Sequence record: PP400784
Source: Escherichia phage FL38
Length of the DNA stretch: 64,000 nucleotides
Direction: 5' to 3' (one strand)
The stretch's first letter is position 1; every line of letters begins with the position of its first letter. The position numbers and the translations under genes were made by a program. The notes under the pieces were generated by a model. That model did not search any database, was not told the DNA's origin, and saw nothing but the letters and a program-made list of their open reading frames with translations. Shown in pieces: positions 28,113 through 33,668 of this stretch.

Positions 28113-28140
28113 ATTATACACTACTGCGTTACACTGTCAA
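28113..28140 (-). promoter_or_regulatory. Early promoter cassette
   Basis: TTGACA-16 bp-TATAAT overlapping the 3' end of upstream gene. Confidence 0.6.
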
Positions 28141-29511
28141 CTCTTTTTCAAAAGATTTTACGATATACATGATAGTGCTCAATTCTGACGGCGCTACTGT
28201 CTCTGTGTAGCCATCCGGCATATCTTCTTTTGAGATATAGGAAGTTTTACCTTTCATCGCTTCCTTGATCGTGTTCTCTAATTCTAAGATCTTTTGACCG
28301 TCTTGTAAAGTCAATTCATAAAAGATCTCGTGGTCGAACTTAGAAACACGAGATTGGTTTTTCATTCGTTCTTGTGTTGTTAAATTGGTTATTCCAAACT
28401 TAACTGCCGTTAACGATTTATGTTTGTTTAGTTTCTGTACATAAAATGTTCCCGGTTTTATAGGTTGATAGCCCATTTTAGAACATTTTCTGCATCTTGT
28501 CCCAGATTGTACAAATTTACTATATGTTGGTGTATACTCATGACCCATTTCACATGTAATTTTTAATCTTGTTTCGACCCCAGAATAGCTACCTCCACAA
28601 AATCCGTGAAATTTATTATTACCCAACACGGAAATTATATTTTTTATTGCATCGTCTTCGTTCCTGCGACCACTACATACTCCACATCTATATCCACCAT
28701 GAAAAAAATCACTAAACGCAATATTGTACTCATGTCCATTATTACACGTCATATTAAGTCTCGTCCTTATATTTTCGTATTTTCCACCAACAAATCCATT
28801 GAAAATATGGTCTCCTTTGACCGAATTAATTCTATCTAACGCGGTAGTTTCTGTTAAACGCTTTGTCCCGCAGCATTCCGGGCATCTAGTTCCTTGAATA
28901 AAATGACCATACGTTGGTTGATATATGTGTCCATTATTACACTCTATTATTAACTTTGTTTTATGTGCACCAATGTAAGCACCACCAACAAATCCATGAA
29001 ATTTTTCATCGACCAGTGCGTTGATGATATTTTGTATAGCTTCATCATTCGATTTTTTGTGTTTATTATTGCAAATTGGACATGTATTGACACCACCAAT
29101 TATGCTGGAATAACATCTATGGTATTCGTGACCGTGTTCTTTACATTTTAATATAATTTTAGATGTCGATACATTTTTAAACTCTTCTGTCGTGAAACCC
29201 ATAAACTCGCTATCTGTTAATGAAGATTTTATATCATCAATAACTTGTTCGGTTGATTTCTTTGCATTGGGTGCGCATAAACCACATTTGGTTTTTCTTC
29301 CAACTAGTGTTTTAATAGTTTTTGTGTGTGTTGTGTGTCCTTTATCGCACATTATACATACCCTTGTATCACATCCTTTCCAATCATCAACAAACCCGAG
29401 AAATTTGTAATTTATAGAGTGACAATATTCGCGTACTGTATTCTCGTGAATTGTCGGTTGTTTTTGTCTCTTACCAACGCAAATGTCCTTAGCAAAGTAT
29501 GTTTTCAACAT
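28129..29511 (-). CDS. Multi-zinc-ribbon repeat protein with C-terminal GIY-YIG-like (T5orf172-type) domain
   Basis: Five repeats of about 65 aa (GF.GG.Y ... C..GHEY ... C..C); C-terminus GTFYVQKL ... KFGIT ... DGYTETV; start trimmed to MLKTYF with SD GGAGGA. Confidence 0.55.
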   Translation of the reverse strand: MLKTYFAKDICVGKRQKQPTIHENTVREYCHSINYKFLGFVDDWKGCDTRVCIMCDKGHTTHTKTIKTLVGRKTKCGLCAPNAKKSTEQVIDDIKSSLTDSEFMGFTTEEFKNVSTSKIILKCKEHGHEYHRCYSSIIGGVNTCPICNNKHKKSNDEAIQNIINALVDEKFHGFVGGAYIGAHKTKLIIECNNGHIYQPTYGHFIQGTRCPECCGTKRLTETTALDRINSVKGDHIFNGFVGGKYENIRTRLNMTCNNGHEYNIAFSDFFHGGYRCGVCSGRRNEDDAIKNIISVLGNNKFHGFCGGSYSGVETRLKITCEMGHEYTPTYSKFVQSGTRCRKCSKMGYQPIKPGTFYVQKLNKHKSLTAVKFGITNLTTQERMKNQSRVSKFDHEIFYELTLQDGQKILELENTIKEAMKGKTSYISKEDMPDGYTETVAPSELSTIMYIVKSFEKELTV

Positions 29512-29539
29512 TTTTATCCTCCGTTGTTTCGATGTGTGC

Positions 29540-29567
29540 ATTATACATTACCACATAAGCATGTCAA
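29540..29567 (-). promoter_or_regulatory. Early promoter cassette
   Basis: TTGACA-16 bp-TATAAT followed by conserved leader ACACATCGAAACAA. Confidence 0.65.
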
Positions 29568-30599: not shown

Positions 30600-30635
30600 A
30601 TTCACTATTCCTTCTTTTGATTAATTTACTAGACT

Positions 30636-30663
30636 ATTATACAGATTTAAATTTACTTGTCAA
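30636..30663 (-). promoter_or_regulatory. Promoter for gene 32 with A/U-rich leader
   Basis: TTGACA-16 bp-TATAAT on minus strand overlapping gp59 stop; unstructured A/U-rich 5' UTR. Confidence 0.55.
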
Positions 30664-31340
30664 CTATTTGTTTCGGCTTTTAATTGAGATATTTCTTTAC
30701 ACTCTTTAACTACTTTAACAAATAATGCTCTTGCTTTTGCGGCGTCAATAACAAGTAGTTTCTTGTACGCCTTCATTTTAACACTATAAGTTTGCCAAAT
30801 CAAGTCTTTGGCTACCTTGTCGTGTTCGTCGATTATATTTAGAAAGCTATCTAACAACATAAACGACTCAAACGATATAATCCGATTTTGCAGTAGTTTA
30901 AATATACCGCTAGTTTCGGTTGCGGGATTGTATGTAATTAGCTCTTTAAGAGTAACCCCGCGTTTCTCGGAGAAGTATACCAGACTTTTAATGTCATCGT
31001 CAAATCGTGTTGCTGCATCGGTTATCTTTCCTATGTATTCCATATAAAAGCCGTATGCGTCAACATCAGTGATTTCACCTACCCATGCATCGGTATTAGC
31101 TACCAGATTGCTTAGGAATAGGAAGTATAATTCTCTTAGATTGTACTTTTCCGCTAATTTTGCGAAATAATACTTATCTCTGCGTTTATTGAATGCGGCA
31201 TCAGATAACCGCATCCTCCAATTGTATTTTACGCAATCATAACGCCCGTTCATGTGAGCTTTCATCATGCAATATAACATATACACAGATTTAGCATTAA
31301 TTCGCATATCTGGATCTGGAGGAAGACGGTTTCTGATCAT
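30660..31340 (-). CDS. 59: Helicase loader gp59
   Basis: 226 aa; GKSVYMLY, HMNGRYD..KYNW, LVANTDAW, NIIDEHD parallel T4 gp59. Confidence 0.9.
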   Translation of the reverse strand: MIRNRLPPDPDMRINAKSVYMLYCMMKAHMNGRYDCVKYNWRMRLSDAAFNKRRDKYYFAKLAEKYNLRELYFLFLSNLVANTDAWVGEITDVDAYGFYMEYIGKITDAATRFDDDIKSLVYFSEKRGVTLKELITYNPATETSGIFKLLQNRIISFESFMLLDSFLNIIDEHDKVAKDLIWQTYSVKMKAYKKLLVIDAAKARALFVKVVKECKEISQLKAETNS

Positions 31341-31349
31341 ACATACCCC

Positions 31350-31619
31350 TTAAATATCGAGAGTGTTGGTCGGTTCGTCGATCACTCCCTTCCTGAGCGT
31401 TCTATTTACTATACATTCTTGTGTGATCTTGTCAATAATGGACACCGGAATATACTTCTGATAGTGACCATATTCTATAGAGTTTTCCTCTACAAACTGA
31501 GTTGTCGCTTCAAGATAAGTCAATCCCTCTTCAACAACCAGTTTTTCGATTGCAAGACCGTTTGCTGTTTTATTCGCGGCTTTTACCGCATGTTCATTAA
31601 GCATTGAACACCCGATCAT
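31350..31619 (-). CDS. 33: Late transcription co-activator gp33
   Basis: EKLVVEEGLTYLEATTQFVEENSI parallels T4 gp33 core; true start uncertain. Confidence 0.75.
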   Translation of the reverse strand: MIGCSMLNEHAVKAANKTANGLAIEKLVVEEGLTYLEATTQFVEENSIEYGHYQKYIPVSIIDKITQECIVNRTLRKGVIDEPTNTLDI

Positions 31620-31872
31620 AGAGTTCTACCGCTTCATCGCGTTCTGCTTCGAAGGTTTCGCGCTGTTGCTGGTGATACAGTTTAAACAGAATGCCCCACA
31701 TTTTACCATCTACGCCTAATTCTTCTTTAGCACGCTGTTTGATCTCTTTGATCTTATCGCCATATGCTTCTTGAATGGTTTTCTGATCGCTGGCTTCTTT
31801 AATCAGTTGTGCCAGGGTATTTCCGTGCACTGCTTCGTCAAATACTACTTTTTCTTTTTTCTGTTCAGTCAT
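31597..31872 (-). CDS. dsbA: dsDNA-binding protein DsbA
   Basis: 91 aa; N-terminal MTEQKK and FEAERDEAVELYD pattern and T4 position. Confidence 0.65.
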   Translation of the reverse strand: MTEQKKEKVVFDEAVHGNTLAQLIKEASDQKTIQEAYGDKIKEIKQRAKEELGVDGKMWGILFKLYHQQQRETFEAERDEAVELYDRVFNA

Positions 31873-31876
31873 AATA

Positions 31877-32476
31877 TTAACCCTCTTTAGTCATTAATTG
31901 AAAACCACGTTCAGATTTTGAGATTTCGCTAGGACGTAAATCGTCACCAACATATTCTAGCATCATTTCTCGGATAATGTCAAGTGCTTTTTCATCACCT
32001 GATTTTAACTCGAACTCAAGTTCATAATGAGCAGTGTCGCCCAATCCTTCTCCTACTTTGCCATAATAGAAAGTGTCTTTGCACATTTCCACTATACCGC
32101 AACCCATATCTAGAGTCAATGACTTGCGATATGTCATTACTTGCATTATTGTAGTGATATAGTCGGAGTTTACCCCTAGACTATCAATAAAATGGACGAA
32201 CTCATCCCAATTTGAAAATGTCATTTCCTCGCGGTTGAATAGTCCAGATTCATTATCACCCATTTTGACCATGATCTCTGATTTTCTACAGTCAAGTCGT
32301 GCATAAATTCCTTTTTGACGTAGCGCATGATCTTCGGTATCATAATAAAATTCGTGTTTTAATATGTTATCTCGATCGACGATATTATAACCGTCATACA
32401 TTGCCACCCACAAATCACAGATGGTTTCGACGCCAATTTGTGAGTGTGCATAGTATTTTAACTCAAGTTCTTTCAT
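31877..32476 (-). CDS. CYTH-domain protein (triphosphate tunnel metalloenzyme family)
   Basis: N-terminal ELELKYY (ExExK), EFYYDTEDHALRQKGIYARL, YRKSLTLDMGCGIVEM, C-terminal HYELEFELK: CYTH signature blocks. Confidence 0.6.
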   Translation of the reverse strand: MKELELKYYAHSQIGVETICDLWVAMYDGYNIVDRDNILKHEFYYDTEDHALRQKGIYARLDCRKSEIMVKMGDNESGLFNREEMTFSNWDEFVHFIDSLGVNSDYITTIMQVMTYRKSLTLDMGCGIVEMCKDTFYYGKVGEGLGDTAHYELEFELKSGDEKALDIIREMMLEYVGDDLRPSEISKSERGFQLMTKEG

Positions 32477-32486
32477 GTGTCAACCC

Positions 32487-33434
32487 TTAGAACTCACCAA
32501 TTTTCTGCAACATTTTAACTAACGCATTTGTTACAAAATAGTTATAAATTTTACCGCGTGGTGCTGGTTTAGATTTCTCCCATGCTAACAAAATTTCATA
32601 TTCGATGTTATCAGGAATAAATTCAAAATCAATAAGTTCGCGGTTTTCGTCAAAGCGTCGTGCTTCTTCCTCTGTCATCAAAGACTTTGGATCTTCGGCA
32701 TCGAAAATTTGCTCTAACCATTTGGTTGCAATTGGTTTAGCTCGTTCTCCTTCCAGTCGTGAGATAATGAAATCACTACGGCACTTGATAGAAGCTACAC
32801 CGTCTTTTGCGTCACCCTTAACACATTTTACCATAAGGTCTTTGTAAGGGCTACCATATTTGCATTTCTTCCACGCTTTCTGTACTGGCGACCACTGTTT
32901 CACGTTTTTGTATTTGTGCAACTGTGTGTAGTCACCATCGCCTGAGTTGATCAGCACCTGGCGACCTTCGACAGAAAACTTTTTAGTTAACACAGCGATT
33001 ATATCATCCGCTTCAACTTTGTCAACCTTAATAACGTGATAAGGCATGTTCTCTTTAAACTCTTCGGTGATCTTATTGATCGCAGCAAAGATCATCTCCC
33101 AATCACGCGGATCTGCGTCTCGTTTTTCCTTACGGTTGCGTTTATAGTAAGGGGCGATATCACGTCGCCAGTAACCTTTACTTGAATCAAAGGCAAGTAC
33201 CGTAATTGGGTATTGCTCTTTGAATTTTGTCATATTATAACGCATGGTGTCAAGAATAAGATGACGAATCATGCCTTCATTAATAGGATCTTCCGGTTTA
33301 AAGGTATGCGAGATAGTAGCAATCATAAGCTGCGACATATCAATCAAATGCACACCTTCCGGCAGTTTATCTTCTGGATCATCGAAGAAATCATTAAGTG
33401 TAGCGGTAGTTTTTGTAAACGGGTTATACGTCAT
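32487..33434 (-). CDS. rnh: RNase H / FEN-family 5'-3' exonuclease
   Basis: 315 aa; N-terminal LIDMSQLMIATI block parallels T4 RNase H; position before gene 34. Confidence 0.8.
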   Translation of the reverse strand: MTYNPFTKTTATLNDFFDDPEDKLPEGVHLIDMSQLMIATISHTFKPEDPINEGMIRHLILDTMRYNMTKFKEQYPITVLAFDSSKGYWRRDIAPYYKRNRKEKRDADPRDWEMIFAAINKITEEFKENMPYHVIKVDKVEADDIIAVLTKKFSVEGRQVLINSGDGDYTQLHKYKNVKQWSPVQKAWKKCKYGSPYKDLMVKCVKGDAKDGVASIKCRSDFIISRLEGERAKPIATKWLEQIFDAEDPKSLMTEEEARRFDENRELIDFEFIPDNIEYEILLAWEKSKPAPRGKIYNYFVTNALVKMLQKIGEF

Positions 33435-33436
33435 AA

Positions 33437-33622
33437 TTAAGTTCTCTCCACTCTCACAACAACATATTCGCCAAACGAGTTAGATACTTCACGATCATAC
33501 CCGTACTTCTCCATAACTCGCAGAATTGCATTGTTTAATTCAGCACGGAAATAATTATAATCCTTATCAGGGATTCTGTCAACTACCCATTTTGCACCTT
33601 CTGACAAATCAACTTTAACCAT
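33437..33622 (-). CDS. Hypothetical protein (61 aa)
   Basis: ORF between rnh and gene 34 late promoter. Confidence 0.4.
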   Translation of the reverse strand: MVKVDLSEGAKWVVDRIPDKDYNYFRAELNNAILRVMEKYGYDREVSNSFGEYVVVRVERT

Positions 33623-33660: not shown

Positions 33661-33668
33661 TATAAATA
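33661..33668 (+). promoter_or_regulatory. T4-type late promoter (TATAAATA) for gene 34
   Basis: Exact TATAAATA about 30 nt upstream of gp34 ATG, followed by SD AAGGAG. Confidence 0.8.

Follow-up and report, generated by a model that had tools for sequence, protein, structure and literature searches.

In phage T4 the genes dsbA (149509-149778) and rnh (149787-150704) lie 8 bp apart with nothing between them, an adjacency that an earlier note on the present sequence had given correctly. In the stretch of DNA analysed here, 64,000 nucleotides from Escherichia phage FL38 (PP400784; hereafter the window), a third open reading frame separates the two, and the locus raises the question of what this additional gene is, how long it has held its place and what its product does. 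The window belongs to Krischvirus, the RB49/Phi1/JSE group of T4-like coliphages, at a nucleotide identity of 96-99% over 3 kb. The reading frame occupies 31877..32476 on the minus strand, stop codon included, exactly as the earlier note had it, and encodes a putative CYTH/triphosphate tunnel metalloenzyme of 199 amino acids from an ATG start; it corresponds to RB49p245 (RB49ORF244c). The product begins MKELELKYY, with the ExExK signature at residues 3-7 (E3, E5, K7) as previously described, and because an in-frame TGA, read from the sequence, lies two codons 5′ of the ATG, the protein cannot start earlier. The proposed neighbours were confirmed by Pfam. Upstream is rnh (32487..33434, minus strand), encoding an RNase H/5′-3′ exonuclease (PF09293 and PF02739), whose TAA stop (32489-32487) is followed by GGGTTGACAC and then by the CYTH ATG, a spacing of 10 nt. 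Downstream is dsbA (31597..31872, minus strand; PF11126, E = 5e-22), whose ATG falls 4 nt past the CYTH stop and whose Shine-Dalgarno sequence, GAGGG, lies within the last CYTH codons; the same-strand order continues with gp33, gp59 and gp32. The CYTH gene, rnh and dsbA follow one another closely on one strand and probably share a transcript.

The assignment to the CYTH superfamily, originally made from motifs, is borne out by profile searches and by structure prediction. The protein matches the Pfam CYTH profile PF01928 over residues 23-191 with 29.8 bits, above the gathering cut-off of 23.2 (E = 6.3e-7), and falls in PHROGs family 14893, which carries no assigned function. When a profile of 14 family members was compared with all PDB sequences, the sole match was E. 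coli YgiF, an inorganic triphosphatase (5a60; E = 0.0029, residues 3-195); a marginal single-sequence match to the TriTu immunity protein (E = 0.029) was gone with the family profile and was treated as chance. An AlphaFold model built from the family alignment (pLDDT 93.3, pTM 0.87) predicts eight long strands and a C-terminal helix, forming a β-barrel tunnel with a plug helix, and its best structural neighbour is again YgiF. Together, profiles and model indicate that the gene product is a stand-alone CYTH/triphosphate tunnel protein of the branch that contains the YgiF tunnel domain. The likeness to YgiF (PDB 5a60/5a61) lies in the N-terminal tunnel domain, with its metal ligands and the positions of catalytic Arg56 and Lys69. 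YgiF, however, has 433 amino acids and a CHAD domain, whereas the phage protein has no CHAD domain (Pfam finds CYTH only, and the chain ends past the plug helix), and its β3-β4 hairpin is two residues shorter.

HMMER, run exhaustively against 1.84 billion representative proteins, returned only six with E < 1e-10, the other ∼200 matches being ordinary stand-alone CYTH or CYTH-CHAD proteins, and structural matches in BFVD outside Krischvirus had TM scores of at most 0.56. Uncharacterised CYTH genes are scattered in other large phages, among them Aeh1 (Aeh1ORF004c), Aeromonas phages 65.2 and D3, Ralstonia phage RP12 and jumbo phages; attention was drawn to them by Nolan 2006 (PMC1524935) and by Iyer et al. 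2021, the latter proposing that they cleanse the nucleotide pool. These belong to a different family; tblastn with three members of the present family found only the 58 Krischvirus records described below. A distant relative from Bacilli metagenome bins, P0049 (462 aa), has its CYTH domain fused to a P-loop (AAA/kinase-like) domain and in PADLOC faintly matches families that are candidates for defence (E about 0.004).

Distribution and synteny show that the gene is an old resident. Tblastn detected the family in 58 of 50,697 phage records, all Krischvirus and all matched at full length, and in every one the gene lies between rnh and dsbA; dsbA itself was found in 1,400 phage records. The synteny comparison proposed earlier thus places the gene in one genus among phage records and not throughout the T4-like phages. 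In Dhakavirus IME341, Karamvirus PG7, Jiaodavirus KpV477, Acinetobacter phage 133 and Aeromonas phage 25, rnh and dsbA are adjacent as in T4, and in Erwinia phage Cronus an unrelated 64-aa reading frame lies between them. Three metagenomic relatives (P0043, P0044 and P0045, at 48%, 37% and 31% identity) are each located immediately upstream of dsbA-33-59, and downstream of rnh too where the contig extends that far. A pattern scan of IMG/VR returned only three loci, all Krischvirus, and when the distant relatives P0044 and P0045 served as tblastn queries, the only isolates matched were Krischvirus phages. The G+C content of the gene (0.35-0.38, against 0.39-0.43 in its flanks) gives no sign of recent foreign origin, and cluster look-ups for its closest cellular relatives yielded hardly any names or taxa and pointed to no particular donor lineage. 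The conserved rnh-dsbA-33-59-32 block has therefore received the CYTH gene as an insertion specific to this lineage, and an old and stable one, since the gene is fixed in the 58 Krischvirus records and is found upstream of dsbA in relatives only 31-48% identical. The suggestion of an insertion into a conserved block holds relative to T4 and five other genera; the event was neither recent nor sporadic. A small reading frame encoding 61 amino acids (33437..33622, minus strand) lies between rnh and gene 34; it belongs to phrog_3594, of no known function, has no Pfam match, and is present in Krischvirus records. T4, in which gene 34 comes straight after rnh, lacks it.

Conservation in 58 phage genomes, a dN/dS of about 0.25-0.3 and a confidently predicted fold establish the CYTH reading frame as a real gene, and we reject its being a chance open reading frame on the same grounds.

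What the product might do depends on its tunnel. In a MAFFT alignment of the phage protein with 146 distant CYTH proteins, the core positions E3, E5, K7, Y44, D46, R60, K71, R82, E84, R117, E130, D134, E152, E154, E156, S186, K187, R190 and G191 are all kept. The ExExK motif (codons 3-7, 32456..32470, minus strand) is invariant in the phage family, and its two glutamates and lysine are matched in 140-141 of the 146 distant proteins; by alignment, E3 and E5 stand where YgiF has E4 and E6, ligands of metal site 2. On strand β8, the invariant E-L-E-F-E (codons 152-156, 32009..32023, minus strand) aligns with ELELE of YgiF, so that E152, E154 and E156 face E158, E160 and E162, and by the YgiF roles E154 would serve metal 1 and E156 metal 2. 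The C-terminal plug helix carries S-K-x-E-R-G (codons 186-191, 31904..31921, minus strand), invariant in the family and aligned to SKAARG of YgiF; its S, K, R and G recur in 130, 145, 127 and 135 of the distant relatives, respectively. Martinez et al. (PMC4641920) have shown that in YgiF the catalytic metal is bound by E4, E6 and E162 and the substrate-metal complex by E160, that R56 is essential and that K69 helps. By alignment, the residues E4, E6, E162, E160, R56 and K69 are E3, E5, E156, E154, R60 and K71 of the phage protein.

The phage family also departs from the superfamily in ways that bear on its substrate. In R-L-D (codons 60-62, 32291..32299, minus strand), the MAFFT alignment places Arg60 at the catalytic first-arginine position and Asp62 where RxR has its second arginine. 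Column 60 is arginine in 145 of the 146 relatives and column 62 in 141; in the phage family column 62 is aspartate, or asparagine in P0045, the most distant phage relative. The paired arginines of the CYTH superfamily are thus incomplete here, while R60, K71, R82 and R117 are kept, and Asp62 is a departure within the superfamily and not an exclusion from it. Other family-specific changes face the tunnel: K40 replaces Leu, Y58 replaces Ala/Ser/Gly, F136 replaces Gly and Y138 replaces Ile/Val, with Y58 itself being V or I in the more distant phage relatives P0044 and P0045. Relative to YgiF, too, the second RxR arginine has become Asp62, and aliphatic or small residues have become Lys40, Tyr58, Phe136 and Tyr138. 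The register in this region deserves comment. The HMMER pairwise alignment with YgiF, ungapped here, sets Tyr58 opposite Arg56, a shift of two residues from MAFFT, which sets Arg60 at Arg56; with MAFFT the R60-K71 spacing is as in most relatives, the YgiF hairpin being two residues longer. On this basis we infer that Arg60 occupies the position of YgiF Arg56.

The reading that we consider likely, on the strength of the alignments and the model, is that the protein is a two-metal hydrolase that removes the terminal phosphate of a triphosphate substrate, as YgiF does, and not a cAMP-forming cyclase. A triphosphate-bearing substrate would thread into the eight-stranded β-barrel, closed by the C-terminal plug helix, where its phosphates would be held by Lys7, Arg60, Lys71, Arg82, Arg117 and Lys158. 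Glu154 would bind the substrate-metal complex at site 1, and Glu3, Glu5 and Glu156 a second Mg2+ or Mn2+, which would activate water to cleave the terminal phosphate. Of the activities that the earlier note had entertained, hydrolysis of a triphosphate is thus the chemistry that the conserved residues support, and production of a nucleotide signal is unlikely, as the corresponding signatures are absent. Several observations weigh against a hydrolase. The second RxR arginine, so widely kept elsewhere, is Asp or Asn here, and if the HMMER register is right the catalytic arginine itself has been replaced by Tyr, Val or Ile. A search of NCBIfam with the protein gave no match, leaving no model there that names it, and the literature gives no measured activity for any member of the phage family. 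A frameshift in one isolate, discussed below, is a further argument on that side.

For the substrate, inorganic triphosphate or a short polyphosphate is the default. An organic triphosphate such as a nucleotide appears about equally plausible because of the family-specific tunnel changes at Asp62, Lys40, Tyr58, Phe136 and Tyr138; aspartate in place of a canonical tunnel arginine suggests in particular that the substrate may differ from plain triphosphate. Mammalian thiamine triphosphatase offers a comparison, as it has W/YxRxR with a stacking aromatic residue. Krischvirus has Y58-x-R60-x-D62, in which an aromatic residue is present and the last arginine is missing, and the structural match of the phage protein to that enzyme is much weaker than the match to YgiF.

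The gene differs strikingly from its surroundings in how it varies among close relatives. Between the window and phage Skers, amino-acid identity is 96.5% for rnh, 98.9% for dsbA, 100% for gp33 and 99.1% for gp59, and 57.3% for the CYTH protein. Sliding DNA identity confines the divergence, with sharp boundaries, to a hypervariable cassette spanning codons 13-151 (32024..32440, minus strand), which is 41.7% identical to Skers at the amino-acid level and whose DNA identity is 47-58% with Skers and 73-97% with RB49-type phages; DNA identity is 90-100% in the flanks, to which CYTH codons 1-12 and 152-199 belong. Synonymous divergence follows the same outline: dS in the cassette reaches saturation in the comparison with Skers and is 0.32-0.50 for RB49-type alleles, compared with 0.02-0.18 in the flanks, a 3-10-fold excess. 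Further alleles, P0042 (58% identity) and P0034 (67%), also occur on Krischvirus backbones. At least four allele classes reside on backbones 97-100% identical, and by sliding identity some phages are mosaic within the cassette.

The ratio of substitutions (dN/dS of 0.26-0.39 in the cassette and 0.25-0.34 over the whole gene) indicates that the CYTH gene is under purifying selection. A search for positive selection in 30-codon sliding windows gave a peak dN/dS of about 1.0-1.2 near codons 41-90, which is not convincing and which rests on 13-15 non-synonymous against 4 synonymous changes. Rapid adaptive evolution was rejected in favour of old alleles and recombination, dN/dS being nowhere clearly above 1. 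Among ten divergent family members, conservation in the cassette is 0.77 at tunnel-facing strand positions and 0.48-0.52 at outward-facing strand, helix and loop positions. The simplest reading is that homologous recombination through the conserved ends of the gene exchanges several old alleles, the interior of the enzyme being constrained and its surface free, or selected, to vary. The gene would then be an accessory of the Krischvirus lineage, kept as a set of old alleles exchanged through those ends.

For the link to signalling-based host defence that the earlier note raised, PADLOC and the literature gave no direct support; of our observations, only this unusual allelic diversity hints at an interaction with the host. 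It bears on a further possibility, that the gene acts in counter-defence. The hydrolase could destroy a triphosphate-bearing host immune messenger or precursor, for instance of the dITP/ITP type, or host defences could sense the protein and so drive the diversity of its alleles. The occurrence of at least four deeply diverged classes on near-identical backbones, with a variable surface around a conserved tunnel, fits such a role, as do the restriction of the gene to one lineage, its apparent dispensability, and the remodelling of the tunnel at Y58, F136, Y138 and D62, which suggests an organic triphosphate. There is also precedent for immune signalling by triphosphate nucleotides, in E. coli-type systems that phage dNMP kinases trigger (bioRxiv 10.1101/2024.12.20.629578). 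However, the protein has no homology to known anti-defence proteins, PADLOC gave no match for it or for its nearest relatives, dN/dS never clearly exceeds 1 even at its local maximum, and neutral recombination with diverged relatives would explain the allele pattern equally well. On balance we regard a counter-defence function as improbable. We judge the same of its fuller version, a factor for counter-defence or host takeover whose substrate is a specific organic triphosphate (a dITP/ITP messenger, an alarmone-like compound or thiamine triphosphate) and whose alleles are kept by host-factor selection on the surface: an outside chance worth stating.

A polynucleotide 5′-triphosphatase is likewise doubtful, and somewhat more so. 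Such an enzyme would remove the γ-phosphate from 5′-ppp RNA, for example from transcripts or from the primase-made Okazaki primers handled by the adjacent RNase H. The RNA 5′-triphosphatases Cet1 and those of mimivirus and poxviruses provide a viral precedent for tunnel enzymes, with two-metal chemistry in common.

A class IV (CyaB-type) adenylate cyclase that makes cAMP, the other activity named at the outset for the fold, is very unlikely. Membership of the CYTH superfamily speaks for it, as does the name 'adenylate cyclase' in three records among the matches listed. Vogt et al. (PMC8233210) described three signatures that separate class IV cyclases from hydrolases: an HFxxxxExExK sequence, in which HF precedes ExExK by four residues; a small residue where RxR has its first arginine; and ExA instead of ExE on β8. 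In the phage protein only M-K precedes E3, the in-frame TGA being two codons upstream, and the HF motif is absent. The first arginine has not been replaced, R60 being kept in the MAFFT alignment (the HMMER pairwise alignment with YgiF is shifted by 2 residues), and ExE on β8 is intact, with E154 and E156 both glutamate and invariant. Aeromonas CyaB and YpAC-IV of Yersinia pestis accordingly differ from the phage protein, which lacks HF, keeps the arginine that the cyclases replace and has ExE against their ExA. With none of the three published signatures present, a hydrolase is far likelier than a cyclase; we reject the class IV alternative, and the label 'adenylate cyclase' carried by several GenBank records is not supported by the sequence.

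Codon 59 of the CYTH gene has lost 1 nt in phage vB_EcoM_G2494 (L010 2501-3096), a change from TATGCTCGA to TAT-CTAGA that divides the gene into two annotated coding sequences. The deletion reflects either a knockout that arose naturally or an error of sequencing, so either the gene is not essential or the record is in error; if the frameshift is real, the gene is dispensable in at least one isolate. That the product is a non-catalytic binder or sponge, or that the gene is decaying and without function, could be argued from this frameshift in 1 of 58 records and from the loss of one canonical arginine, and is most improbable given metal ligands and catalytic Arg and Lys that are all invariant across alleles 31-57% identical overall, a dN/dS of about 0.3 and an uninterrupted full-length match in 57 of the 58 records.

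Parts of this picture were already available. Nolan 2006 (PMC1524935) had already tabulated a CYTH match for RB49ORF244c, the RB49 RefSeq record notes similarity to ygiF, and some records already read 'inorganic triphosphatase'; in the literature we found no functional study of the Krischvirus gene and no characterised phage CYTH enzyme. Our analysis excludes the cyclase reading and adds the RxD variant, the placement conserved across distant relatives and the allele cassette. The practical result is a correction of the annotation 'adenylate cyclase' in several GenBank records. If the enzyme clears inorganic triphosphate only, it would be a minor metabolic accessory of one coliphage genus. A nucleotide-like substrate, if that is what the changed tunnel residues reflect, would matter more, as triphosphate nucleotides have recently been shown to be bacterial immune signals, and this small, well-folding protein, present in many Krischvirus phages that are therapeutic candidates, would then offer an easy biochemical entry point. 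The sharply bounded cassette, set in a replication/transcription block that is 97-100% conserved, also offers a clean case from nature of alleles being exchanged within a gene in T4-like phages.

Other parts of the block vary on a smaller scale. The 3′ part of rnh contains a patch (32561..32679) with 68-82% DNA identity to Skers, RB49 and GEC-3S, the gene outside it being 95-100% identical, and a patch in gene 59 (31002..31060) has 85% identity in ECD7, RB49 and Cognac, the rest of that gene being 98-100% identical. In Skers, G2494 and Cognac, genes 59 and 32 are separated by a gene for an HNH homing endonuclease (L001 6802-7398, L010 4298-4894 and L016 4302-4898, respectively); this gene is absent from the window, where identity drops to 42% at the gp59/gp32 junction (30606..30659). 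Downstream of gene 32, a gene at 28129..29541 (minus strand) encodes a protein of 470 amino acids in which CapR-homology and treble-clef zinc-finger domains are repeated, termed 'endonuclease' in PHROGs, and its position holds other genes in other Krischvirus phages, such as a GIY-YIG nuclease in Skers.

Candidate promoters in the region come from consensus scans. The RB49 record annotates no promoter next to the CYTH gene, and the timing of CYTH expression is one that we infer. Between 29540 and 33582 we counted 27 σ70-like sites where shuffled sequences would give 13.4, and almost all of them lie on the coding strand. One candidate, TTGACA-17-TAAAAT (32455..32483, minus strand; 11 of 12 consensus positions), has its -35 hexamer in the rnh/CYTH spacer and its -10 hexamer in CYTH codons 6-8, so that a transcript from it would begin inside the CYTH reading frame. 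A second, TTGACA-18-TAGAAT (31954..31983, minus strand; 11/12 with TG), lies about 80 nt upstream of dsbA, within the conserved 3′ portion of CYTH, and falls in a stretch (32019-31961) that is 97-100% identical. Sites matching all 12 positions occur on the minus strand at 33582..33554, 33025..32998, 30663..30636 and 29567..29540; one is inside the small reading frame upstream of rnh and one inside rnh, and the site at 30663 corresponds to the early promoter that the RB49 record annotates before gene 32. On the opposite strand, a T4-type late promoter motif, TATAAATA (33661..33668, plus strand), is located 29 nt upstream of the gene 34 start (33697) and is one of only three copies in the window.
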